Origin: an uncultured Nitrososphaeraceae archaeon
GTDB taxonomy: Archaea > Thermoproteota > Nitrososphaeria > Nitrososphaerales > Nitrososphaeraceae
Reading direction: 5' to 3'
Length of the DNA: 42,704 bases
Assembly: GCA_963825865.1 (NCBI GenBank)
Contig: CAWGVG010000061.1
Location: 1-42,704 of the forward strand
Shown here: positions 11,412 to 30,044 of the stretch, piece by piece
Position numbering within the stretch: position 1 is the stretch's first letter
How the letters are laid out: each line of letters opens with the position of its first letter
Program-made: the position numbers and the translations under genes
Notes under the pieces: model-generated
Databases searched by the model: none
Seen by the model: only the letters and a program-made list of their open reading frames with translations
Told to the model about the DNA's origin: nothing

Positions 11412-11769
11412 ATTTTCTTTAAGAAATTATGTTCGTTTTCAGTCAATATAACTAACATAAAAATTAAGTATATATTAAATGGCTTTATTTGTACTAAAAA
11501 TTACCGTAGTTTGTTTTCAATAAGACTTTCTACTAGTATATGGATCATTTTCAATTATTGTTATTTAACTGACATTTTGTAGATGTTATGGACGCATTTG
11601 TTTTTATTACATTCTTTTTAAACATGTTTTTTCTAACTTTCTGCTTTGTTGCACGAATCTGATATTGGTCGACTATGTTCAGAAACCTAGACCAAAAGTG
11701 ATTACTTCGCATCCAAATCATTCATAGTTTATGCTGTAAACACTTAACAATAACGATTTTTCTGAATCA

Positions 11770-13123
11770 TGCAGTTTTTATAAAGATCAATGGAGAGGAA
11801 TGGGGGATTGGTTAGGTCCTAATTTTATTGCCACCTATAACAGGCAATATCGATCATTTGAAGAGGCTAAAGCATTTGTACATAGCCTTGGATTAAAGAA
11901 TAGCGCAGAGTGGACAAAATATGCCAAATCAACTGACAAGGCTGATGATATACCTGCCAGTCCGAGCGCAGTATATGAAGATCAATGGAAAAGCTGGGGA
12001 GATTGGTTAGGTACAAGTACTGTTGCATGGCAAGATAGAGTCTATAGACCATTTGAAGAGGCTAAAAGGTATATACACGCGTTCCAGTTTAGCAACAGAG
12101 AAAATTATGCGAAATGGTGTAAGTCTGGCAATAAGCCTGATGATATACCTGCCAGTCCGAGCGCAGTATATAAAGATCAATGGAAAAGCTGGGGAGATTG
12201 GTTAGGTACAGACTATATCATTCCTGCTAATAGCAGATATAGGCCCTTTGAAGAAGCTCGGGAATACATACACACTCTCCATCTCACTAAGAGAAATGAA
12301 TGGTTAGAATACTGTAGATCAGATAAGAAACCGATTGATATTCCTAGAAACCCAACTGCAGTATATGAAGATAAATGGATCAGTTGGCTTGATTGGCTTG
12401 GTTACAAGAAATTCAGAGATTTTGAGGAAGCTAAAAAGTATACTCATTCGCTAGCTCTAAAATCTTATAGTCCAGTGGCAAGTCTATTGCAGATCTGGAA
12501 AAAAGCCTGATGATATACCCAGTACCCCTAATCAAGTTTATAAAACGGAATGGAAAGCCTGGGGAGATTGGCTTGGTGCCTATAACGTTGCACCAAAAGA
12601 CAAATCAATTCGTCCCTGGTTTCAAGCAAGGGAATACATTCGTGGACAGGGATTAAAGAATGTAAGAGAATGGGATAGCTATTGCAGATCTGGAAAAAAG
12701 CCTGATGATATACCACATAATCCAGATACTGCATATAAGAAAGAATGGAAGGGATATCGAGATTTCCTTGGAAATGAAAAACCACAATATCGTCCATGGT
12801 CTGAGGCAAGGGATTTTGTTCGTAAATTAGGAATCACAAGTCAGGATGAATGGAATAACTATTGTAAAGCGGGAAGATTACCTGCTGACATACCAAAAAG
12901 TCCAGATGACTTTTATAAAAAAGAATGGAGTGGTTTGAAAGATTGGCTTGGATATGACTATCGCCCATGGCCTGAAGTTAGAGAATGGGCGCAGAAACAA
13001 GGATTGAAAAGTCAAAAAGAATTTAAAAACTATTGTAACGCAGGAAAATTACCTGCTGACATACCCAGACGCCCAGAGGCAGTTTATAAAGATGAATGGA
13101 AGAGCTGGGGAGATTTCCTTGGT
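11770..13123 (+). repeat. Tandem protein-repeat array, 7 full units of ~57-65 aa plus a partial first unit
   Basis: Consensus YRPF/WxEA+.....L....EW..YC.SG..P.DIP..P...Y...W..WGDWLG; DNA near-identity 11942-12015 vs 12137-12210 and 12484-12519 vs 12679-12714. Confidence 0.9.
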
Positions 13124-15680
13124 ACTGGGAGAATTGCAGATCAGGAAACAGGATGGTCAATAAGCAAAATAAAGGAATTATTAAAACATTTAATCGAAGG
13201 CAAAGTAATTTATGAGTGGGATGAAGCTGTTCTTTATTCACTTTTACTACGAAGAGGATTATTGAATTTAGATCACAAAAATCGACACTTTGGTTTTTTC
13301 AAAAACCTAATTGAAGCAAGTAGAACAGAAGAAGGTCGAAAAGCTATCGAGGAATATGCAAATTCAGATTCGGAGACACCGCCTGATTTATCGACATTAT
13401 CATCAGTTTCTGAAGATGATTCAGAACAAGAGATACAATCAGCATCATCACAAGAACTTTGCTAAACTAGTAGAAAACCAAGAGCCATTGGATTATGGCG
13501 AAATTGAGACAGCAGAACAAATTCTAGCCAATACAAATGTCTTGAATCAATCAATGTAGATGAAGAGGCCATGCAATTCTACCTTACATTATTCTATAGA
13601 TGAATTATGGAAAAGTGCATTCAGAGATAAAGAGAAGACTATTGCAGTACTGTTAAACAGGAAGGCAAGAATGGAAACAAATATCCATGACGCAGTAGTA
13701 GAGACATTTCTTTCAGATTATGAAGGAACACAAAACATCAAAACTCCAGATGGCTATGCATTTCCATCAGAATCCTACTCTAATGCAGTTATATGTAGCA
13801 TACAAAGTTAAGACACTTCCTTTCTTTGGAAATTTTTCTGGAACTGGTGCAGGTAAAACACTTTCAGCTGTATTAGCAAGTCGAGTAATAGACAGTAAAA
13901 TGACATTAATAGTATGTCCAAATGATGTTGTAGACCAATGGGCAAAAAATATTGTAGAGATATTTCCTAATTCTAAAGTTATAACAGGAAAGGAAGCATT
14001 TTATGCAAAATATGATGAAAGTAAATATCAATATCTGGTTTTAAACTATGATAAATTTAGTCAGGAAGAATCACCAAATCTTATCTTAAGACTTGTTAAA
14101 CAAAAAGTGGATTTTGTTGTTTTAGATGAAATTCACTTTGTAAAGAAAAGAGATGAGGATGCAAGTCAGAGGCGAAGAAATCTAGATGGTTTGATGACAG
14201 CTGTTAGAAAGAAAAATACCAACGTGAAGGTTCTTGGACTTTCAGCAACTCCTGTAGTAAACAACTTGATGGAAGGAGGTCTTTGTTGGAGTTGATAACA
14301 GGTAAAGATATATGATGATGTTTCCACCAAACCAACAATTCCAAATGCAGTTACACTATATGAAAAATTATCTACTATATCAATTAGAGAATTACCAAAA
14401 TATGATATCGATGTCACTTACACAAGACATACGATGTTGAAGCACAAGACCAGAAAATATTAGCATAAAACAACTAAAAAGAAATCCATCTAATCAATTG
14501 AACAATTTTTAACAGATGCTAAAATACCTGAGATAATTAAGACATATAGAAGGTCAGACAATTATCTATACAGAATATGTTACAGATGTAATTGAAAAAA
14601 TATCAAAAGCTGTAGAAAGTGCAGGATATTCATTATGCATTATATACTGGTTCAGACCATTCTGGACTAAAGAGATTTTTAGACAAAAAGGTTCAAGTTT
14701 TGATTGCTTCACGGCCTATTTCAACAGGAGTGGATGGACTACAGCATATCTGCAATAGATTAATTATCAATACGCTTCCATGGACCAATGCTCAATATCA
14801 ACAACTTCTTGGAAGATTGGTTAGAAAGGGACAGATTAGAGATGTGGTTCATGTATACATTATCAAAGCTAATATAAGTGGATATGCAATATGATCATCT
14901 GAAATGGAATAGAATTCAATTCAAACGTACATTAGCAGATTGTGCGTAGATGGCAGATTACCAGAAAAGAATCTTGTTACTCCACAACAAGCAGCAATGG
15001 AAGCAGTAAAATGGTTAGAAAGATTAGAACGTGGTGAAATATCTACTATTACAAGAAGAGACCTTGAAGTAGAATTAACTCCTAGTACAAATAGAACAAA
15101 GAATAAGAAAATATGGTGATTTTACAAAGACTAAATAACCAAATAAACAATGAAAATTCAGAAACAACTCATGAAAGAATGCTAAAAGATCCGAAGGAGT
15201 GGGAAGAATATCATAGACAATATAGAGAAGCACGAAAGACATGGACTATTATTCCGTATGAAGAAATAATTAAAAGAATTAAACAATTATCTCCAAGGCA
15301 TGCAAATAGGAGACTTTGGTTGTGGTGAAGCCAAAATTATGGAAGCAATTGGAGAGAAAGAGTTTATAGTTTTGACCATGTTGCAATAAATGACAAAGTA
15401 ACAGCATGTGATATGAAAAAAGTTCCATTAGCTGATGAAGCACTTAGATGTTGCTGTTTTCTCTTTATCTCTAATGGGTAAGAATTGGCATGACTATATT
15501 ATCAGAAGCAAAAAGATGTCTTGTCACAAATGGTATATTTGACTAATTGCAGAAACAACAAAATCTTTGAAAGAAGGAAGACTATCAAATATTAGAGAGG
15601 TAATTAAAGAGAAAGGTTTTGAAATATATACAGATGAAGAAAGAGGAGACTTTACATTTATTGAAGCAAGAGAATTGTAG
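11770..15680 (+). CDS. Fusion: tandem 'integrase-repeat' array + SF2 helicase + Rrp8/NML-like SAM methyltransferase (multiple frameshifts)
   Basis: Seven repeats ending WxDW/FLG; helicase motifs GTGAGKT, CP, LDEIH, SATP, TGVDGLQ, QLLGRLVRKGQ; methyltransferase WEEYHRQYR, GDFGCGEAKI, SFDHVA, ACDMKKVPL, DVAVFSLSLMG; stop TAG at 15678-15680. Confidence 0.85.
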
Positions 15681-19856: not shown

Positions 19857-21246
19857 ATGTTTCGCAACATAGAACGTCGTTATGTTAAGGGCAATCTTAC
19901 TATCATCATCTTTGCAACAACGATTCTTTTATTAGATCTCTTGTGTAATTAGAAGCTTAGAGCTATATTCCTCTTCACATAGGATATCTATCTGACAAGC
20001 TCTTTGATGTCCTATAGCAAATTATGTAAGAAACCTTTGATATTCAGGTCATTTACCGGAGTAACTGTATCTGAATTTGAATCCATTTGTAACGAAATTG
20101 AACATAACTACGAAGAGCACGAAAGAAGACGTCTTCTATCAAGGACGAGAATACGGGATATAGGTGCTGGTAGACCATTTAAGCTTAAAGTTAAAGAAAG
20201 ATTCGTTATGCTTCTAGTATACTACAGATTATACATTACATATACATTATCAGGATTTCTGTTTGACCTTGATCAAAGCAATGTTTGTAGAGATATATCA
20301 ATGATGGAACCACTTATCAAGGAGTGTATTCCATTGCCAAAGAAGATATACAAACGTACTAGGAGATTAAGAACTATAGATGAAGTAGAAGAGTACTTCC
20401 TGGATTCAAGGCTTTCATAGACTCTACAGAACAAGAAATTCCAAGACCTAAGAACAAAAGAAGAAGGAAGAGTTACTATTCAGGTAGAAAGAAGAAACAT
20501 ACTGTCAAGACACAATTGATGGTAAACAGTGAAGGATTGATACTGCATAAGACAGGTCACAGAAGTGGAAGAAAACATGATTATGACATTTACAAACACA
20601 ATCATTCTATAACTCCATCACAAGTTGAAAACATAGTTGATCTTGGTTATCTTGGCATTGAAAAGGACTTTCCCACTGTAAAGTCTGTACTTGGTATCAA
20701 AAAGAAAAAGGGTACATTGCTTTCATGTGATGAAAGAACTTACAACAAGAATCATTCTAGGCTAAGGATCATAGTAGAACATACCATATGTAAGATCAAA
20801 AAGTTTGGAATAATGGGTACTAAATTTAGAAACAGATTAAGGAATACAATAACGTATCTGATATAATATCCGGTCTCCTGAACTTCAGAGTTATACAGTC
20901 TGACAGCATTTCAATCTAAGAAGACGGCTAAAACAAGTAGGGTGTTAGACTATAGTCCTAATTACGCAAGAGATCTATTATTATCATCGTCATCGCTTTT
21001 AGTAGGAAATCTACAAATCCCCACAACATCATTGAAAAAGGCTGATGCTCAACTAACGACTACTACTGCTGCAGCCAACACCTGCACTAACCTAGCAATT
21101 GCTAATGTCATAGCTCAGTGGTAATGATGGTAATGTACCATCTAATACTATAGACAACAACCTTAACACCAGGTGGTCAAACCTTGATATTGGTTCATGG
21201 ATAAGGCTTGACCTGGGCATACAGAAGGTTATCTGCAGCGTAGATA
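19857..21246 (+). pseudogene. Secreted F5/8 type C (discoidin) domain protein disrupted by two IS elements
   Basis: MFRNIERRYVKGNLTIIIFATTILLL | IS | LLSSSSLLVG...; then GNDGNVPSNTIDNNLNTRWSNLDIGSWIRLDLG, cut by the IS at 21247. Confidence 0.75.
19935..20975 (+). mobile_element. IS5-family (ISL2-like) insertion sequence, copy 2, transposase about 20004-20900 (frameshifted)
   Basis: Same TIRs as copy 1 and TA flanks; ORFs 20004..20420 and 20516..20866 are near-identical to the copy 1 transposase. Confidence 0.9.
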
Positions 21247-22362
21247 GGGGTTGTTGCCTAATTTGATATCGCATATGGTGTCACCTTTATTCCCAGTTTG
21301 TTTGCACATTGTAGTCTGTTAAGGACTTCTAGGTTCCAGCCTATTGATTTAATTAATCCAAATCTTTTCTGATTGTTCTTTAATCTGAATGTGCAGTATA
21401 GCTGATGATGATGATGTTTAGTTTCTTCAGCTCCAAATATTCCTTCTATCAATCCTCTATAACGATATATTGATGCATTGAATATCTTTGCAGCCTTCTT
21501 TCTGTATTTGTTCTTCTTACTACTGCTATTCTTGTTCTTGGAGTTTTTTCTCTGCTTGATATTTGGAAGCATGTTCATGTTAAACACTGACTGGAAGTTC
21601 TTGTTGCCATCATAACCTCTGTTACCATTGAATGTTGAACCTGCAAAGTCTAATCTATATTTCTTCAATCTGTTTAGCATTGTTCGGAGTACTGGAGAAT
21701 CGTGTGTTTTCTTACTGGTAAGTCGTGTATTAAGTATTATGAGATGATCAAGTATCCCTGTGATATGCCATTTCAGATACTGTTTTACCCTTATCTTTTC
21801 GAATTTCTTACTACTATTTTTGATAAATCGTAATTCGTATCCTGTACCTGTTTGTCTCTACACCGGTGCTATCTGATGCGAGAATACCCTTCTTCCAGCC
21901 TGATTCTTTCAAACATAGATAAGCTGACCATATTCAGTACACGTTCAAGATATATCAGCGGTATCTTCTTGAATGTACGTGATATCCACGTATGATCTGG
22001 ATATGGCTCGTTATTCCATGGCAAATTAAGAGAGGGTACTATATTCTGTATATCTCTGTACGTTGAACCGAAAACAACCATCAATATACAAATACAGACA
22101 AGTTTTTCCCAAGAATGAATTGGTTTCCTTCCTCTATTACTGTTCTTCTTTGAAGTAGGAGGAGGATTTTCTTTGACCAGAGAAACTATATTTTCGATAA
22201 GCATATCTCGTTCTAGGGTATGTGCTAGATGGTAACACAACCAGTAACCATCTTTCCTCTTGTGCTTGCAAGTCAATAAGAGGGTGCATACCCTTTCTAA
22301 GCTAAATCGAAAACCGTGAAATCATATTTACAGTCAATTAAAACGAATTAGGCAACAACCCC
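21247..22362 (-). mobile_element. IS5-family (DDE_Tnp_1 type) insertion sequence, transposase 21258-22276 (frameshifted)
   Basis: Perfect 17-bp TIR GGGGTTGTTGCCTAATT / AATTAGGCAACAACCCC; PDHTWISR, RGYD, YRYRGLIEGIFG; no TSD. Confidence 0.85.
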
Positions 22363-22510
22363 GGTTCAAGGCTTTATCCGCCATTTCCGAGCCATCATGC
22401 GGCACCAATATTGTGTTATATTGGGGATTAGTATCAGAAGAAGCCTGAGGAGGAGAAGGCGTACTTGAAGTTGTTATTGGATGTTCTGATTCTGTTTTTC
22501 CTATATGCAT
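22363..22510 (-). pseudogene. UspA N-terminal fragment truncated by IS
   Basis: Reverse strand reads YNTILVPHDGSEMADKALN and ends at the IS TIR. Confidence 0.7.
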
Positions 22511-22724
22511 GCATAAATTAATGAGAATCTAAGTATTAATAAACCATTAAACTATAATAATACCCCTTCTTTCACTTAACGTATAAAAATATTTTACAAA
22601 TGGTTGATAATCCTGCGATTTTGAAAATATAACTTATCAAATATTAATTACAAAGAAATATAATTGTCATTTGTTCAGCATTTACTCCAACAGCCTTATA
22701 TCTTTCAAATATATCAGGGAAAAT

Positions 22725-22868
22725 ATGTTAGAAAATATAGCATACGTAGGTCTTGGCTTTACAACAGTCTTCTTCGCATTGGAAACAGCATGGCACTTCA
22801 CAGCGTGCAAGATACATGATAAATCAATAAAGCCTTGCTTCTACAAGCAAGTTGGATTATTGAAATAA
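22725..22868 (+). CDS. Small membrane protein
   Basis: MLENIAYVGLGFTTVFFALETAWHFTACK; one TM segment and a Cys pair. Confidence 0.5.
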   Translation: MLENIAYVGLGFTTVFFALETAWHFTACKIHDKSIKPCFYKQVGLLK

Positions 22869-23226
22869 AGAGAGAGAGGTTACTGACTGTGGCAAGTATT
22901 GAAAGCAGTAATAGAGCTAGAAGAAGGACAAAATCGCTAAAGACGAAGACAACTTCATTAACAGACAAGATTCCTATAATATCGTCTTCATTCAATGCTA
23001 TTGAATACAAAGAATCATAACTCGTGATGGTTTTGGTTACTTTTCAACGACTAATGACTAAATAAAGAACTTACGGTGGCAAGGTTTGCGCGCAAAGCAA
23101 TACTGATCCTAGAGATGCTAAAACATTTCCATTTACAATATCGTAAAATAGTGGTTTAGAAAATGGTTATCCGCGCTGTATTATTATTACCTTTCAACAC
23201 CTTAGATAAAATTTCCGATGAGTTAA

Positions 23227-23586
23227 ATGACAATCTATATTGTTAGAGCCAAGCCAAAGAAAAATCTAATTAAAGATCTGCATAAACAGTTAGAATCAGG
23301 TCAAATATCACAGCTCAAACCATTTGGAAAAGCCCTTAATCATGGTTTACAGAATGCAAAGATGGACGACAGCGATGGATATCATATTGGATAGAAGAAT
23401 ACTATTGCTCTCCTCCACTTGCTATGGAACGAGAGGCAGTATTAGACAAATACTTTGATGATTTAAGTGTAGAAAAAGTAGAAGAACCTCAAACAGGATG
23501 GGAAAGAATGAGATAAACCATTGCTTTGGGCAGGCAGCAGTAGTAGTAGCAGTAGCAACAAATATAACAAATTATTCCTTAGATAA
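23227..23586 (+). CDS. Conserved archaeal hypothetical protein (frameshifted)
   Basis: MTIYIVRAKPK...ISQLKPFGKAL...WIEEYYCSPPLAMEREAVLDKYFDDL...GWE. Confidence 0.55.
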
Positions 23587-23612
23587 AACCGCAACCTAAC
23601 CCGGAATAGCCA

Positions 23613-24053
23613 ATGACCGAAGCTGAGATTAGAGAAATTATCGATAGGGAAACTCGCGCTTGGGATAATCAAAATCTTGACATGCTTATGAGCATATTTC
23701 ATCAAGATATGGTATGGCCATGGCCAAGAACTACCCATTCTCACGACCCAATGGATTGGTTTTTTGAAGTAGGTCGCTTCAATTATGAAAGATGGCGAAA
23801 AGGATGGCAAGAACTTTTTCATTCACATAGATTGGTACATAACATTCGCTCAATTCAAAAGATTGTAATTTCACCTGAAGGAGATGGTGCCTTTGCGGTA
23901 GTTGATGTTGATACACTATGGCATAGGAAAGATAACGGAAATGACTTTCATTAGAAAGGACGGGCTTGCAAAGTCTATACAAAAGTAAATGATCAATGGA
24001 AAATGATATATCAGGAAGGATTGTTAGATTATTCAGATACAGGTGCAAATTAA
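23613..24053 (+). CDS. NTF2-like/SnoaL-like protein with internal TAG at 23952
   Basis: ETRAWDNQNLDML...GDGAFAVVDVDTLW; the frame continues KGRACKVYTKVNDQWKMI after the stop. Confidence 0.7.
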
Positions 24054-24229
24054 ACAAACCCATATTATTAATAATGGAAGTAAGACTTGCTCGCAAAACA
24101 ATTCTGATGATAGATCACAGCTATACACAAAACAAAAAGGTTAAGTTATCCCGTTATGGAGGCCATATGGTAGGTTAGAACAATTTTCCCTATTATCTTA
24201 TATCTATTAATCTATCAGTAAAAGAATGG

Positions 24230-24810
24230 ATTCATTCCTTGGCAAAGAACGAACTAACTCAGGTGCATTATGGCACTCAAAATGTTTTGGATACAGAACT
24301 ACAATTCTTATCTAATTCCACTGAAAAGATAGATTCCTGGGCTTGGCTGATATTGAAGTTATTCCAAGCTCAGCAAGAGCACAGGATTTGTATTTGGATA
24401 TTGTAAAATCAGCTGCAGAGGAAATATTATGGATATTCCCGACCCCAAATTCTTTTATTCGTCAAGATAAGATTGGAACGATACAACTAGCAAAAGAGGC
24501 AGCAAAAGAAAGAAATGTTAAAGTTAGAACATTGGTGCCTGAAAACAGAGTAATTGAACAAAAAATACATCAGCTGAAAGAATATTGTCCTGACCACATA
24601 ATAGATGTCAGACATATTGAGCAAATGACAGAGACCAAAGCCACAATTCTAGTAGTTGATAGAAAAGCGTCTTTGGTGATGGAATTAAGAGATGATTCAA
24701 AGACAACTTTTGTTGAAGCAATAGGATTATCAACATACTCTAATAGCAGAGCAGGTGTTTTATCTTATGTAGCAATATTCGAGAATTTATGGATAAATAA
24801 ATGTATTTAA
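24230..24810 (+). pseudogene. Histidine kinase N-terminal sensory fragment (no kinase domain)
   Basis: IVKSAAEEILWIFPT...TILVVDRKASLVMELRDDSK...AIGLSTYSNSRAGVLSYVAIFENLW is typical of Nitrososphaeraceae HKs; HisKA/HATPase is absent. Confidence 0.65.
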
Positions 24811-25700
24811 CAGAACCTTGAGCCAGTTGGAAAGATTTTCTTTAATATCATCTTTTACTAGGGAACTTGAAGGAGAAGTCGCATTTGTATTCAATGAACT
24901 TGTATCTGCTCCTATAGTTGAGTCAGCAGTGGTAGTAGTATCATAGGAATGTAATAGACCAGACTGAGCCTCAGGCCAAGCGTAAAGATCTGCCGATGTA
25001 TATTCTTCGATAGGTCCAGCTTTCTGCAGTCTATACATGCCAGATCCAGTAAAGTAACCAATTGCAGGTGACAATTGATGGCCAAGGCCTGGGTAAGTAA
25101 TCAACATACGATCTGGATGATTTACCTCTGTCAGTCTTTGCTCCGAGCATAAAGACTTGCTGAACTGGAGTATTTGTATCAGAATTAGGATGCCCGTAGT
25201 TGAAGAAACATTTGCGATCATGTTTAGGCTATTACCCAAAGCAAAGTTCGACTTCATATATGGAGGACATTCCTCTAAGCCAAGACAATTTGGATTCTCA
25301 GTGGTAAGAGATTCAATTCTTTTTTCCAGCAGAGGTTTAAGCTCTTTATCGATACTAATGTAATTCTGTTTATTTGTGCTATTTCTTTCGCCTTGCAGCT
25401 GTTCTGTTGTTCTACTGTTATTGATGTTCTTAGCGCTATGAATTACATTACCAGTGTACCTAGTGTTAGAAATAACTTTGTCAATAATAATTTGTAACGT
25501 AGGATCCTTAGATGCCTTGTAATGATACTAATCTATTATGTTTGTGATCTAACACCTTTTCAGCATAAAGGATTGGCAAGTATGCATACTGGAGATACAA
25601 GCTATCACGAAGGTTCAGAGCTTGTGCACCAATAAGTACTATATTACGGACCTTTGTTGGATTATCGACTGCAACTCTTGGTGCAGATGGGTAATAAAAG
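24787..25700 (-). pseudogene. Alpha/beta hydrolase C-terminal fragment
   Basis: PRVAVDNPTKVRNIVLIGA ... EQRLTEVNHPDRMLITYPGLGH ... GPIEEY..ADLYAW. Confidence 0.55.
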
Positions 25701-25854
25701 TATGGTAACTTAGCATATGTTATTATGGTACATGTAATAATCACAGTAGTCTATGACTAATATATTAAAATTTGTCGTTATTGCAGCATCATCTTTGGTT
25801 GCAGCATCGTTGGTGAGTTCATTGATTGGGATTTTTGCAAGATAAACGTAGGAA

Positions 25855-26346
25855 GTGGAAAAACTTGAAGAGGTTTCGCAAAGAGTGTACAAGAATACAA
25901 TATTGACCACGACATTAGGATTCCTCATTATTTACTTTCTCTTTCCATATGTTCAAGGACAAACACTAAAACAAAACTATAAAAGTATTACAATATTTAC
26001 TGGACCAATACATCTAGGTAATGGCCATACCTATTGGATAAACCTCCGTATTCCTCAGAACATTACAGACTCATATTTGAAAGGCCATGTTAGCGCATCT
26101 GGAAGCATACTTAATACTGTGACTGTGAAATTATATGATGCTGGCAAATGTCCTTCTCCTGATTCTAAAGGCAATATTGAGTTTAGTAAATGCAGTTCGC
26201 CTTTGTTATCTGGCGAATATTTGCAAGCACAAGAAATTCTGAAATATATTAATCATCCTGGGAACTTCTATCTTGTTTTGAAAAACAATTCTCCCTTTTT
26301 TGACAAAACCGTATCTGGAAATCTCCTCTTAAAGTACTTAAGATAA
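25855..26346 (+). CDS. Exported hypothetical protein (beta-sandwich-like)
   Basis: N-terminal hydrophobic segment; PGNFYLVLKNNSPFFDKTV. Confidence 0.5.
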   Translation: MEKLEEVSQRVYKNTILTTTLGFLIIYFLFPYVQGQTLKQNYKSITIFTGPIHLGNGHTYWINLRIPQNITDSYLKGHVSASGSILNTVTVKLYDAGKCPSPDSKGNIEFSKCSSPLLSGEYLQAQEILKYINHPGNFYLVLKNNSPFFDKTVSGNLLLKYLR

Positions 26347-27006
26347 CCTAGAAAAAAGCGCCAGTAAAGTCCAGGAGTTGAGCAGCCAGGGATATAGCCA
26401 GAGCGAAATAGCACAGATATTGCAGGTATCTTCTTACTCTTCTACTCCTTTCGTCTATGTACGTATGAAATGTCTTGTTGGTTTGACTACAATTCTAATA
26501 GAAGCATGGAATACTTCGCAGCAGACAGGAGATAGAAGCCACTAGATAGGGAGAAGATACAAGCTTGTCTTTGGCTAAGGAATGCTATTCGATGAAGAGA
26601 GTATGAGTTAAGTTACACCTACGTATTGTAACTAGTTCATAGAAAATTATACATTTTCTACTACTGCTCGCTATCATAGCTTATACCAAAGAGTAGTTTA
26701 AATTTTTCAATGAAAATGCATGAATGCATTTAGAAATGGATCAATGTTTGAATCCTAATGTAATAACGGATGGCAACAGGAGATCAAGATCCAAGAGATC
26801 GAGTCAGATGAGTAAAGATATGGTACTGAAGCATAAATGGTATGATAGTGAAGCAACCAACCGAGTATAAAATAATAGGCAATTTGAAGATAGAACACTT
26901 GCAAGAATGGTAAAAATACTTGGTTCTCTTTCTTGCTCTCCTATAAACTAGATTGGTGCCATGCGTTCAAACTGAGGCTGTAGGCGAGTTGATATCGGTA
27001 TCCCCC

Positions 27007-27925
27007 TTACTGACGCTCCAATGCATGCCGATCCCACTTGGCACTTATTGCCGCTGCTTCATAGGTGCTTTGCACGAAAGACAACAAGACCTCATCAGGT
27101 GACTTCGCGGTACGGACCACATCGTAGGGCAGCAAGAATTCTCCCATACCTGTATGGTAGGATGCCTCCTGCGGGCTGGACCGGGTAGTCCTTGAAACCC
27201 TGAGGCTCAGGATAGGCATAGGAGTAGAAAGCATGGTTCATCGACAGGACCACCGCCAGGCCAGAAACCGCAACTACTCACTTCGTGCGAATAGGCCTCT
27301 ACCGCCACAAAACGGGCCATGTTCGGTGCACCTGGATGACAAGGCGCAGTACGTCCTGAAAAGCGGGTGACAGCCAAATCAAAGGCTCCCCAAAAAAAAT
27401 GTACCGGGCTCACCTTGCCAATGAACCGGGAACGAAACTCCGTAAGCACCCTGCTGGCCTCAGCTAGAATGCGCCAGACCCGTTGTGCATATTCGGGATT
27501 ATAGGTCGCATGTTTCTGATCCTCCTCAAATGGGGTTCGATCCTGCACCTCGACAGGCGTGGTCCAGACAGTTACAGGCATCCCAAGCGATCCCAAGGCG
27601 GCCATCGTTTCTTGATAAAAATCAGCTACTGAGCGTGATCGTAGAGCAATTGACTTGGTAATACCGTCGGTCGTTTGGATGAGTAGGAGGTGAGCAATGA
27701 AATCGAAGTCTATCTGAAGGTATCGACCTTTGTAGGTCATTATGTTTGTGGTGAGTCCGCGAGGTGTGACATACAGGGTAGTATTCCACCAGTGATTCGC
27801 CCGCGGAGTGAGCGCTGAGCCGGATCTTGCCGATGATTTGTGTCCACCTGTGCAGCGTCTCATAGGTGTCTTTCCACTCGGCTAACAGGCAGTGGTGGCC
27901 ATGGGTTTGTAGTCATCGGTTTCAT
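27007..27925 (-). CDS. DUF5996 (Ava_C0101-like) protein, frameshifted
   Basis: WKDTYETLHRWTQIIGKIR, NHWWNTTLYVTPRGLTT, FIGKVSPVHFFWGAFDLAVTRFSGR, EAYSHEVSSCGFWPG, QSTYEAAA; GGAGG RBS upstream. Confidence 0.8.
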
Positions 27926-28489
27926 TCAATCCTCCGCTCAACGGGCGAATTATACATGCGACAGTAATGATTTTCGATGCCGGGCGCTCGGCTAACATAC
28001 GCGGTAAGTATGATCTTGTATTGGATGAGCATGGAGGCTAAGAGAAGTTCGTATAGTCGGGGTTCTGGAAGATGCATTGTATGAATATGTGACAGAGTCA
28101 ACTATCTAATATTTTCTCATAACCACGAATACTGCTAGCAAATCAGACAGCGTTGGTATTTCATGGCAGGGAAAATCATGTTAAATGGACCTTCTCAGAT
28201 GCATCGAGACAACTCCCTAGAGGTAAGTGGACACAGGGCTTAAGCTTGACACAAAAAACGTCAAATGCATATCAGTGTGGATAAAAAACTGCTACAACTT
28301 TAGATATCATCATCATTTTTTTCAACTTCTATTTTAACGGTTTTTAACCTGTGTAAAGGATCATATATCTCATAACATCTTTTGCATAGGTTCAAGATAT
28401 TTCCGAAGTCTGTGTATACTTTCAGTTCTGCTTTGCGTCCACAGAGCCAGTAACAATAGCAATAAGAAAAAATATTGTAGTTGTCGTTA

Positions 28490-28590
28490 ATATTATTATC
28501 GTTATTATTATTATTATTATTATTAGTATGCTCAGGCATTTTCTTAATTTATCTATTTATTATTTTCATTATTATTATTATTATTGTAGG
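28490..28590. repeat. ATT trinucleotide microsatellites
   Basis: Two (ATT)n runs, one encoding poly-Asn in ORF 28300..28539. Confidence 0.7.
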
Positions 28591-28742
28591 ATCAGAGTAA
28601 TTTTTCGCGATCAACGGTGTCAACGACCAGCATTTCTATTACTGGTTTTGGAATATTTGGTAACCTCTGTGTTCTTGATATGTAACGCTTACCTTAATTC
28701 TCTTTCATCTCAAAAAAAGGATTGACATACAAAATTACCAGA

Positions 28743-30044
28743 TCAAGCGTCTTTCTTTTTCAATAGTCGAAAAGACATGACAAAGACAACCAATATTACT
28801 CCAGCGCTAATTAGAAAAGTAGCTCCTCCAATTGAATTATACAAAAATCCACCCAAAGATAACCCAACGATACTCGCCAGGCCTCCAAAACTACCTGCAA
28901 CGCCCTGTACTGCTCCTTGAAGTTTTGATCCTGCGCGTCTTGACATTATGGACATGAAAGAGGGCCACATAAGACCGTTACCAACTGCAAATAATATTAT
29001 AGCCCCTCCGACTGAAATAATATTATTTGATACAAATAATATAAAATTTGTACCTAAAATCATGCTACCAATGATGACTAATTTTTCCTCTGAGAATTTT
29101 TTTAATGCTTTACGTAAGACAGGACCTTGGATCAAAACCATTATTCCACTTAATACTGCATAAAATATTCCCAACTGTGTTACTGACCAATTTAGATCAT
29201 TCGCTGCATGAGTAGGAAAGGCAGCATAGTATATATTAAATCCAAGAAATATCAAAAAATATAATATTAGTAAAAAAGAAATATGTTTTAGTTTGAAAAC
29301 ATCTCGCAATCTAGGTTTTTTAGTGTTTACCGTCGAATAGGGCTCTCTGCATTCCTGCGAAAAAACTTTTCTGATGGTTCCTTCCTCGTCCGGAACCAAT
29401 ATTTCTTCTGACGGGGGCTTGGAATCTCTTAACAGAAAACCTATTACGATTAACGTAACTAAAGATAGAATTAATGCTGCTAGAACTGGCAATATTCCTC
29501 CATAGATAGTTCCCCCTAAAATTCCAGCTAGTGCAGGACCTAGAATAAACCCAAGGTTGGAAGATATCGCCATTTTTCCAAAGTTTTTACTCCTTGTTCT
29601 ATCTGATGAAAGGTCTGCAAGATAAGCATTGGCAATAGAGATATTCCCACCAGTAATGCCGTCAATAGCTCTAGCAAGAAATAAGATAAACAAAGGAAGA
29701 ATAATGACAAATGTTCCAAGGAAGGCGATATCAATGCTAAAAGATTTTTCAAAGGGCAAAAATAATGCAAAAAGAAATAGTATCCAACCAACTGATGTTC
29801 CAACATTACTCAATAAAAGAACTCTTTTCCTTCCAAAAATATCAGACCATCTTCCTAATATTGGAGCTCCAATAAGTTGGAAAGCCGGATAAGTGGCGGC
29901 GAGTAGACCATAAACTATAGCATTACCTCCAAATTTCATGACTAAAAAAATTAGGAAAGGCAAAACAATACTAAAGCCAAGAGTACCTACAAAATTAACC
30001 AATAATAGTGGAAAAAGCGGAGGCTGTTTTACTAGACTAGTCAT
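28743..30044 (-). CDS. MFS transporter, DHA1/TetA-like
   Basis: GRWSDIFGRKRVLL (motif A), ARAIDGITGGNISIANAYLAD, GFILGPALAG; about 12 TM segments. Confidence 0.92.
   Translation of the reverse strand: MTSLVKQPPLFPLLLVNFVGTLGFSIVLPFLIFLVMKFGGNAIVYGLLAATYPAFQLIGAPILGRWSDIFGRKRVLLLSNVGTSVGWILFLFALFLPFEKSFSIDIAFLGTFVIILPLFILFLARAIDGITGGNISIANAYLADLSSDRTRSKNFGKMAISSNLGFILGPALAGILGGTIYGGILPVLAALILSLVTLIVIGFLLRDSKPPSEEILVPDEEGTIRKVFSQECREPYSTVNTKKPRLRDVFKLKHISFLLILYFLIFLGFNIYYAAFPTHAANDLNWSVTQLGIFYAVLSGIMVLIQGPVLRKALKKFSEEKLVIIGSMILGTNFILFVSNNIISVGGAIILFAVGNGLMWPSFMSIMSRRAGSKLQGAVQGVAGSFGGLASIVGLSLGGFLYNSIGGATFLISAGVILVVFVMSFRLLKKKDA

Follow-up and report, generated by a model that had tools for sequence, protein, structure and literature searches.

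A mobile family of single-chain proteins joining a Swi2/Snf2-like ATPase to an Rrp8-type methyltransferase, represented in an uncultured Nitrososphaeraceae archaeon

We analyzed a 42,704-nt stretch of DNA from an uncultured Nitrososphaeraceae archaeon (CAWGVG010000061.1; hereafter the window), which is an entire contig (C61) of an assembly of 62 contigs and 4.98 Mb (GCA_963825865.1, G000). Among transposases and other genes, the window carries a single reading unit on the forward strand (11775-15677, stop codon at 15678-15680), which encodes, in this order, INT_rpt repeats, a helical segment, an acidic Ser/Asp/Glu linker, a superfamily 2 (SF2) ATPase, a conserved connector and a class I methyltransferase. 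The unit was delineated by three-frame translation and by a frameshift-aware alignment to an intact homologue of 1357 aa (P0005), of which residues 43-1357 are covered and with which 907 of the 1283 aligned codons are identical. The protein belongs to a large and unnamed family of single-chain enzymes that moves horizontally and whose spread is patchy and tied to viruses and mobile elements. We give roughly even odds (probability about 0.5) to the reading that the family performs DNA-linked marking in genome conflicts by means of a Snf2 motor and an Rrp8-type methyltransferase.

An earlier note, made from the letters of the window, had described this stretch as a repeat array, an SF2 helicase and an Rrp8-like methyltransferase joined in one unit of ~1300 codons. 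Every motif that it named was recovered in the three-frame translation, i.e. GTGAGKT, DEIH, SAT and QQLLGRLVRKG in the ATPase and WEEYHRQYR, GDFGCGEA, SFDH, CDM and VFSLSLMG in the methyltransferase (Table 1), and the Pfam families that it predicted (INT_rpt, ResIII/SNF2-rel_dom, Helicase_C and Methyltransf_8) were recovered as well. On fragments of the window, INT_rpt (PF14882) scored 39.8 bits with a cut-off of 26.5, ResIII 46.1, DEAD 39.7, SNF2-rel_dom 29.1 and Helicase_C 27.8 bits; Methyltransf_8 (PF05148) scored 23.4 bits on a 71-aa piece of the window and 51.1 and 41.5 bits on longer pieces in a genome-wide family search. The count of at least seven Trp-rich repeats agrees with the seven full repeats and, at the 5' end, the remaining tail of one more, and their resemblance to the Pfam integrase repeat unit is borne out by an INT_rpt match above the gathering score. 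The single-chain fusion is real, as seen from intact homologues of 1150-1410 aa, and the placement of the methyltransferase with Rrp8/nucleomethylin and outside the classical DNA methyltransferases is backed by the Methyltransf_8 profile and by sequence and fold matches to the human protein (see below). The note had further spoken of a unit joined across 1-nt indels; the indels do look like errors, but there are 23 breaks, more than this wording implies, and three of them are of +2.

The ATPase retains SF2 motifs I (GTGAGKT), II, III and VI (QQLLGRLVRKG), with G750, G752, K753, T754, D843, E844, S882, A883, T884, Q1069, G1072, R1073 and R1076 invariant in 16 full-length homologues. For fold comparison, we used the AlphaFold2 (AF2) model of a core protein of 875 aa (P0107; mean predicted local distance difference test score (pLDDT) 76.7). 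All helicase-level Foldseek rows listed from the PDB belong to the Snf2 family (Mot1, SMARCAD1, INO80, ISWI, Chd1, CHD4, ALC1, CSB/Rad26, RapA and SsoRad54; E = 6e-14 to 6e-11, template modeling (TM) score by target up to 0.63), and the nearest viral fold models in BFVD are phage SNF2 helicases. In this predicted structure, the motor folds like the Swi2/Snf2 translocases of double-stranded DNA (dsDNA). The region from the pre-helicase domain into the first ATPase lobe (P0005 residues 563-904) matches phrog_62, annotated as 'DNA helicase', with E = 1.9e-41. Ahead of the motor, the adaptor domain corresponds to helices 26-91 of the P0107 model, and core residues 1-250 gave feature scores of at most 0.84 and TM of at most 0.39 in the ESM Atlas, where the leads are hypothetical proteins with Uroviricota labels. 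Behind the motor, the connector to the methyltransferase carries a conserved FKRTLADCAVDGRLP.

The methyltransferase was assigned with higher scores in the intact homologue, where Methyltransf_8 reaches 142.6 bits (cut-off 27) and the methyltransferase families matched are Methyltransf_8, Methyltransf_11, Methyltransf_25 and no others. The human nucleomethylin/RRP8 domain (2zfu) is matched by sequence with E = 6e-28, and the AF2 core model superposes on it with TM 0.80-0.81, a root-mean-square deviation (rmsd) of 1.7-1.8 Å and 33-34% identity. Motif I for S-adenosylmethionine (SAM) binding, D1238-F-G-C-G1242, is invariant in the 16 homologues and aligns to ADFGCGD of 2zfu; a functional role of the motif I glycine (Rrp8 G209 class) is documented in excerpts of PMC3553958. 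Among 201 genomes, Methyltransf_8 matches above 100 bits come from fusion genes only, and the other matches are generic-looking, do not exceed 33.5 bits and have counterparts in control genomes. Since strong Methyltransf_8 matches are confined to the fusion genes, the domain does not serve these archaea as a housekeeping rRNA enzyme.

The N-terminal part of the protein is exchangeable. The INT_rpt match of intact P0005 reaches 90.2 bits, and the repeat regions of homologues are basic (isoelectric point (pI) 9.4-10.1; 5.5-6.6 for the remainder of the protein). A model of three repeats (pLDDT 87.5) contains four short helices per unit. Six distant members that we scanned carry other modules in place of the repeats: DUF4379 treble-clef zinc fingers in five, Sigma70_r4 above the cut-off in two (and below it in two more), and a helix-hairpin-helix domain (HHH_6) in one; a sub-threshold match to the C-terminal domain of the RNA polymerase alpha subunit (alpha-CTD) was found in one distant member. 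Because the repeats are swapped for DNA-binding modules and the motor has a Snf2 fold, we infer that the N-terminal module is probably a DNA anchor. The repeats of the array are only 37-40% identical to one another, which makes a code like that of transcription activator-like effectors (TALE) unlikely. At two other loci (L010 and L040), the repeats are encoded by tandem separate genes of 210-375 aa (L010:6719-10933, L040:9995-12504) ahead of a core-only helicase-methyltransferase of 874-879 aa. Stand-alone three-repeat proteins of ~195 aa were also observed in several genomes of a sister family (Nitrosopumilaceae-type; L021-L027).

To outline the family, we searched with a paralogue encoded on another contig of the same genome (C3) and obtained 1358 matches among 7999 scored candidates. 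Walker A and methyltransferase motif I occur in one chain in 90 of the 120 best matches; 64 of these fusion proteins have at least three INT-like repeats and 23 have one or none. The source names are 'integrase repeat-containing protein' and 'DEAD/DEAH box helicase family protein', from Nitrosotenuis, Nitrosarchaeum and Nitrososphaeraceae. An exhaustive search with the core-only P0107 gave 551 clusters at 50% identity (E <=1e-30); in the best 150, a single stretch matches both helicase and methyltransferase, and the proteins are as long as 1802 aa. The distribution within the class Nitrososphaeria is sparse: full-length P0005 matches were found in three of 300 other sampled genomes (G050, G115 and G211), and the remaining matches are repeat-only proteins or scraps. 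The genome studied here holds near-full copies on C61 and C3, the latter with at least three breaks, and fragments on C62 and C2. Named bacterial members include a protein of Corallococcus coralloides DSM 2259 (COCOR_02281) and one from a metagenome-assembled genome of Planctomycetota. Furthermore, six IMG/VR loci encode full-length relatives with 33-42% identity. One of these loci (L042) is a tailed phage of a bacterium, because it encodes a large terminase, a portal, a protease and an endolysin, together with a DNA methyltransferase, by PHROGs matches.

Table 1 Features of the reading unit and its surroundings in the window
Feature	Start	End	Strand	Remarks
LigD-type gene	6825	10700	+	several frames; phosphoesterase, ligase core, ligase C-terminal part, polymerase end by eye
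IS481-like transposase (rve, helix-turn-helix)	9006	9881		splits the LigD-type gene
136-nt segment	11638	11773	.	ends exactly where family similarity starts; junction leaving gene start mid-repeat
INT_rpt array, one repeat tail and seven full repeats of ~65 aa (195 nt)	11775	13144	+	Trp-rich, basic; one frame break, at 12475
Helical adaptor domain (WSISKIKELL...EGRKAIEEYANSDSE)	13145	13375	+	opens the conserved core; conserved across 22 core-only proteins
Acidic Ser/Asp/Glu-rich linker	13376	13469	+	translation; equivalent model residues 105-135 have pLDDT <50
Pre-helicase helical domain (ESINVDEEAMQFY..., NGNKYHD...)	13470	13833	+	holds six frame breaks
Swi2/Snf2-like SF2 ATPase, two RecA lobes	13834	14867	+	Pfam, invariant motifs, Foldseek
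GTGAGKT	13840	13860	+	SF2 motif
DEIH	14125	14136	+	SF2 motif
SAT	14242	14250	+	SF2 motif
QQLLGRLVRKG	14799	14831	+	SF2 motif
Conserved helical connector (RIQFKRTLADCAVDGRLPEKNLVTPQQA...WLERLERGE), motor to methyltransferase	14868	15114	+	model helices 612-658
Rrp8/nucleomethylin-type class I SAM methyltransferase (Pfam Methyltransf_8)	15115	15680	+	motif I GDFGCGEA 15309-15332; stop 15678-15680
37-nt direct repeat, first copy	15839	15875		97% identical to second copy; spacing 76 nt
37-nt direct repeat, second copy	15915	15951		
Csm6-type HEPN fragment	15948	16570	+	Cas_Cas02710, 46.9 bits, E = 3.2e-12
TerL homologue	16940	18116	-	49-51% identical to large terminase of Nitrososphaera phage Pro-Nvie1
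Two open reading frames (132 and 301 aa)	18363	19734	-	repeated 'NLSNN...VYVVWQD' units; N-terminal hydrophobic segment

The gene begins at a junction. The AT-rich 136-nt segment immediately upstream recurs with 99.3% identity at C46:17614-17479 in a blastn search of the genome, and 80 nt of it recur with 96% identity on C59 (6243-6321); therefore, a rearrangement removed the original 5' end. Metagenome contigs of two runs (X1 and X2) diverge from the window at 11773. Neither a hairpin nor a palindrome was found in the 136-nt segment (z = -0.28). The segment precedes unrelated genes, and on C46 it precedes a small zinc-ribbon open reading frame (ORF) with the same frame across the junction. 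The truncation need not inactivate the protein, because homologues have 0-8 repeats and a close relative is short by exactly one 195-nt unit.

Aligned to P0005, the unit has 14 frame breaks of +1, three of +2 and six of -1, and not a single in-frame stop in the 1283 aligned codons. The changes are mostly single-base insertions, clustered and in non-homopolymer context. For comparison, we measured rpoB and rpoA' of the same assembly (C44, ~20500-29500, with rpoB at ~24950-28200) against RpoB and RpoA' from a complete genome of this archaeal family (G120), where both are intact. There, rpoB shows 14 frameshifts and one stop in 3.37 kb and rpoA' four frameshifts in 3.8 kb, and Rpb2_6 matches of the genome are confined to this contig. 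Insertions dominate everywhere, with 17 of 23 breaks in the unit, 12 of 14 in rpoB and 4 of 4 in rpoA'. Since the organism cannot live with such an rpoB, the rpoB and rpoA' changes are artefacts, and since the breaks in the unit show the same signature (clustered, insertion-biased and outside homopolymers), we read them as probable artefacts too. The assembly as a whole contains one ORF of at least 1000 aa, at a marker completeness of 81.8%. Relatives' contigs from two soil metagenome runs have no extra base at 12475, 14490, 14494, 15084, 15126, 15300 and 15442, and one of these contigs is 98% alike across 12475. The simplest explanation for the breaks of this copy is an assembly prone to insertion errors, and the gene in the organism is probably intact, though it begins inside a repeat.

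Upstream of the unit, a DDE transposase and an M32 peptidase are encoded, as well as a LigD gene that is in pieces and split by a transposase like that of the insertion sequence (IS) IS481. Directly downstream is a Csm6-type HEPN fragment in frame-shifted pieces, with no CARF part ahead of it, and a 37-nt direct repeat lies between the methyltransferase stop and this fragment. The next gene is a homologue of the large terminase (TerL) of phage Pro-Nvie1, of which the other 20 proteins tested match neither the window (E <=1e-3) nor the genome (E <=1e-5). The genome has 25 TerL-like loci on 22 contigs, and on C61, C3 and C62 a TerL-like locus lies 1.3, 7.1 and 5.5 kb, respectively, from the INT_rpt/helicase locus; one such case of a terminase without virion genes is called 'enigmatic' in excerpts of PMC6563490. 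Farther downstream are more transposases, a major facilitator superfamily (MFS) transporter, dioxygenases, Usp, P-II and Amt. The two ORFs of repeated units (Table 1) look like a secreted repeat protein from their translations and gave no Pfam or PHROG match at E <=0.001. In other genomes, the neighbours are the N-terminal fragment of an integrase together with a tRNA-intron endonuclease (L043), a tyrosine integrase at a distance of 6 kb (L011), a nucleotide cyclase (L008), and TrkH/CBS, a BFN domain and PurP (L044). An integrase or integrase fragment is near the gene in two of five other-genome loci. No conserved partner gene was found across these five loci, where the remaining neighbours are without Pfam match. 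The HEPN gene is ruled out as a conserved partner, as it matches nothing else in the genome and nothing in the other fetched loci; among the fetched loci of other genomes, a TerL-like match was not found either. No tRNA gene that could serve as an integration target lies in the window or beside the gene in L043, L044, L008 and L011.

The nearest described architecture is that of the DarB-type dyad of phage P1 DarB and other 'polyvalent' proteins of phages and conjugative elements, in which a SWI2/SNF2 ATPase is combined with a methylase and which is presumed to escape restriction by ATP-dependent methylation of the incoming DNA (Iyer et al. 2017, excerpts of PMC5512222). Both have an SNF2-type ATPase fused to a methyltransferase in proteins of phages or mobile elements. 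However, the dyad has an EcoKI/TaqI-like N6-adenine methyltransferase, which precedes the helicase in the chain and comes with an LPD36 domain (PMC5512222), whereas here the methyltransferase is Rrp8-like and C-terminal, with N-terminal arrays (INT_rpt) in front; that paper has no occurrence of 'Rrp8'. Fold matches in BFVD to phage helicase-methylase giants have 11-13% identity. Rrp8/nucleomethylin shares the methyltransferase domain (profile, 2zfu fold and SAM motif I), but is a eukaryotic nucleolar protein without helicase or repeats, in contrast to the fusion with a Snf2 motor in prokaryotes and phages. DNMT5, a eukaryotic SNF2 ATPase fused to a C5-cytosine methyltransferase, resembles the family only by analogy, as a Snf2 motor gating a fused methyltransferase on DNA, and differs in methyltransferase family and domain order. 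We found no paper on an INT_rpt/helicase/Rrp8-type methyltransferase fusion. Papers mentioning PF14882 name it in lists only, as far as their excerpts go, and PMC11502894 (excerpts) counts its matches as integrases; a survey of thaumarchaeal mobile elements does not mention the family in its excerpted text (PMC6563490).

Taken together, these observations are best explained if the family is a variant of the SNF2-methylase dyad of phages and plasmids, and not a named defence system. In the mechanism that we propose, the N-terminal modules would hold the enzyme on dsDNA, the Snf2 motor would track along the duplex using ATP, and the tethered methyltransferase would methylate a nucleic-acid substrate encountered en route. 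The substrate would most likely be DNA of the element or the host, for marking or for anti-restriction like that of the DarB-type dyad, with nascent RNA as the main alternative.

Several observations weigh against this mechanism or against its operation in the present copy. First, the Snf2 assignment of the motor is less clear by profile, where SNF2-rel_dom (35.5 bits, cut-off 24.9), ResIII (36.1) and DEAD (33.7) score alike on the same stretch of P0005, and a PDB profile search of the motor gives weak matches to Hel308 and XPB. Second, a structural match for the INT_rpt repeats is absent (Foldseek against the PDB, all E >3 and none at E <=0.001; VIA-align wide, best Z 2.7), and DNA binding by these repeats is suggested by their charge and by the domain swaps. 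Third, the characterized relatives of the methyltransferase act on rRNA, where they form N1-methyladenosine (m1A) (PMC3553958, excerpts). N1-methyladenine would disrupt base pairing in duplex DNA, so that Rrp8 chemistry fits duplex DNA badly; because of this, RNA synthesized at the DNA may be the substrate, or the enzyme may have changed its specificity. Fourth, the family was not found in the cultured phages of INPHARED, except for one weak helicase-only match in Tenacibaculum phage Larrie. At last, the copy itself is 5'-truncated, beginning mid-repeat with its first in-frame ATG at 11800, and its breaks number 5.9 per kb overall and about 10 per kb over the 2.2 kb at the 3' end, a higher density than in rpoB (4.5 per kb) or rpoA' (1.1 per kb) and than in the C3 paralogue, where 3.5 kb contain at least three. 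Thirteen sequencing runs, with no RNA run among those listed, each share at most 0.08 of the sampled words; near-identical contigs in two of them (X8 and X9) cover 11700-12228 alone, a break-free stretch.

The methyltransferase is also the starting point of the strongest alternative, a rather unlikely one in our estimate, in which the enzyme is directed at RNA, the methyltransferase keeps the Rrp8 m1A activity on rRNA or a different RNA, and the ATPase remodels ribonucleoproteins or, like RapA, rides RNA polymerase, which would let nascent RNA be methylated during transcription. Its closeness to nucleomethylin in identity and rmsd is as expected of such an enzyme, and yeast Rrp8 makes m1A645 of 25S rRNA while an archaeal 23S rRNA carries m1A628 (PMC3553958, excerpts). 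RapA is among both the structural and the NCBIfam matches, and the sigma region 4 domains of distant members, with the single sub-threshold alpha-CTD match, hint at contacts with promoters or RNA polymerase. However, the gene is no housekeeping gene, being full length in 3 of 300 genomes with no stand-alone strong Methyltransf_8 in the 201 searched. Moreover, by fold the motor lies closest to dsDNA translocases and not to DEAD/DEAH RNA helicases, and the modules swapped in at the N-terminus are DNA binders.

We consider a role in host anti-phage defence less probable still. In that scenario, a nuclease-less protein like the type ISP/III enzymes would mark self DNA or disable invading nucleic acid by methylation. 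The best PADLOC and NCBIfam matches are indeed the defence helicases DrmD, HmaA, DpdE and BrxH, the distribution is patchy, and the gene of the window adjoins the Csm6-type HEPN fragment among IS elements. However, these matches do not exceed 39.6 bits and cover partial stretches of generic helicase lobes, with equivalog cut-offs of 500-1100 bits (NCBIfam DrmD_b 38.6/950, DrmD 32.1/610, DpdE 30.3/500 bits), which rules out identity with DrmD of DISARM, HmaA of Hma or DpdE of Dpd despite the helicase-level likeness; no partner genes of these systems were seen among the neighbours scanned. The HEPN gene occurs once in the genome and is missing from the other loci that were fetched, a search for nuclease and further effector domains found none, and full-length relatives reside on a tailed-phage contig. 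The earlier note had proposed a defence system in an island with TIR, CRISPR/HEPN and terminase genes. The HEPN fragment and TerL are there downstream, but no TIR was found among 30 flanking ORFs by Pfam (not every ORF was scanned), and 0 of 20 neighbour ORFs in the five other loci matched a defence family (two of the 20 have integrase domains). With weak helicase-level matches, no conserved partner and relatives in a phage, its defence assignment is not sustained. The other parts of the proposal fared better. Its recognise-translocate-modify scheme has indirect support in the Snf2-like fold predicted for the motor and in the exchange of the N-terminus for known DNA-binding modules. Its observation that no nuclease motif is evident agrees with our search, in which no nuclease family matched P0005 or another homologue (P0043) at E <=0.01. 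Its statement that no named system has this architecture needs qualification, since the SNF2-methylase dyad of phages and plasmids has been described (PMC5512222, excerpts), although with a different methyltransferase.

Type ISP enzymes (LlaGI/LlaBIII) are single chains with an SF2 translocase, a methyltransferase and a target-recognition part, and in this respect resemble the present protein. A type ISP or type III enzyme is nevertheless ruled out here, as no nuclease (Mrr or PD-(D/E)xK), no N6-adenine methyltransferase and no target recognition domain (TRD) was found.

Similarly doubtful to the defence role is a dead pseudogene, in which the frameshifts would mean that a mobile gene truncated at its 5' end is genuinely decaying, irrespective of what the family does. 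Some real decay is possible, because the break density exceeds that of the controls (rpoB, rpoA' and the C3 paralogue) and the copy is truncated, its start lying within a repeat where it adjoins the recurring 136-nt segment; fragments alone are present at two other loci (C62 and C2), and elsewhere the contig has ORFs of 1.25-1.3 kb that are free of breaks. Against this stand the absence of in-frame stops despite 23 indels, the intact catalytic motifs, the prevalence of single-base non-homopolymer insertions with the identical signature and clustering in essential rpoB, and the 98%-alike metagenome contig without the insertion at 12475. In view of the frame breaks in rpoB, rpoA' and this gene, pseudogene calls anywhere in this assembly are unsafe.

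Returning to DNA-linked marking by a Snf2 motor and an Rrp8-type methyltransferase, one may extend this reading to a bolder picture, which we put forward as a long shot. The Snf2 motor of archaeal and bacterial mobile elements and phages might deliver an Rrp8-type methyltransferase that writes a base modification outside the repertoire of the classical DNA methyltransferase families, either into DNA or into nascent RNA at sites defined by the DNA, where the INT_rpt, zinc-finger or helix-turn-helix arrays would set the location; the family might also be the source of eukaryotic Rrp8/nucleomethylin. If DNA is methylated, the family would bring a new methyltransferase fold, and possibly a new mark, into the chemistry of phage/plasmid/host conflicts; if RNA is methylated, it would be a DNA-guided RNA modifier. 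The annotation 'integrase repeat-containing protein' is misleading for these proteins. With hundreds of clusters, the family spans ecologically important ammonia oxidisers, a cultured myxobacterium and phages, and through it a nucleolar enzyme of eukaryotes is connected with the mobile elements of prokaryotes.

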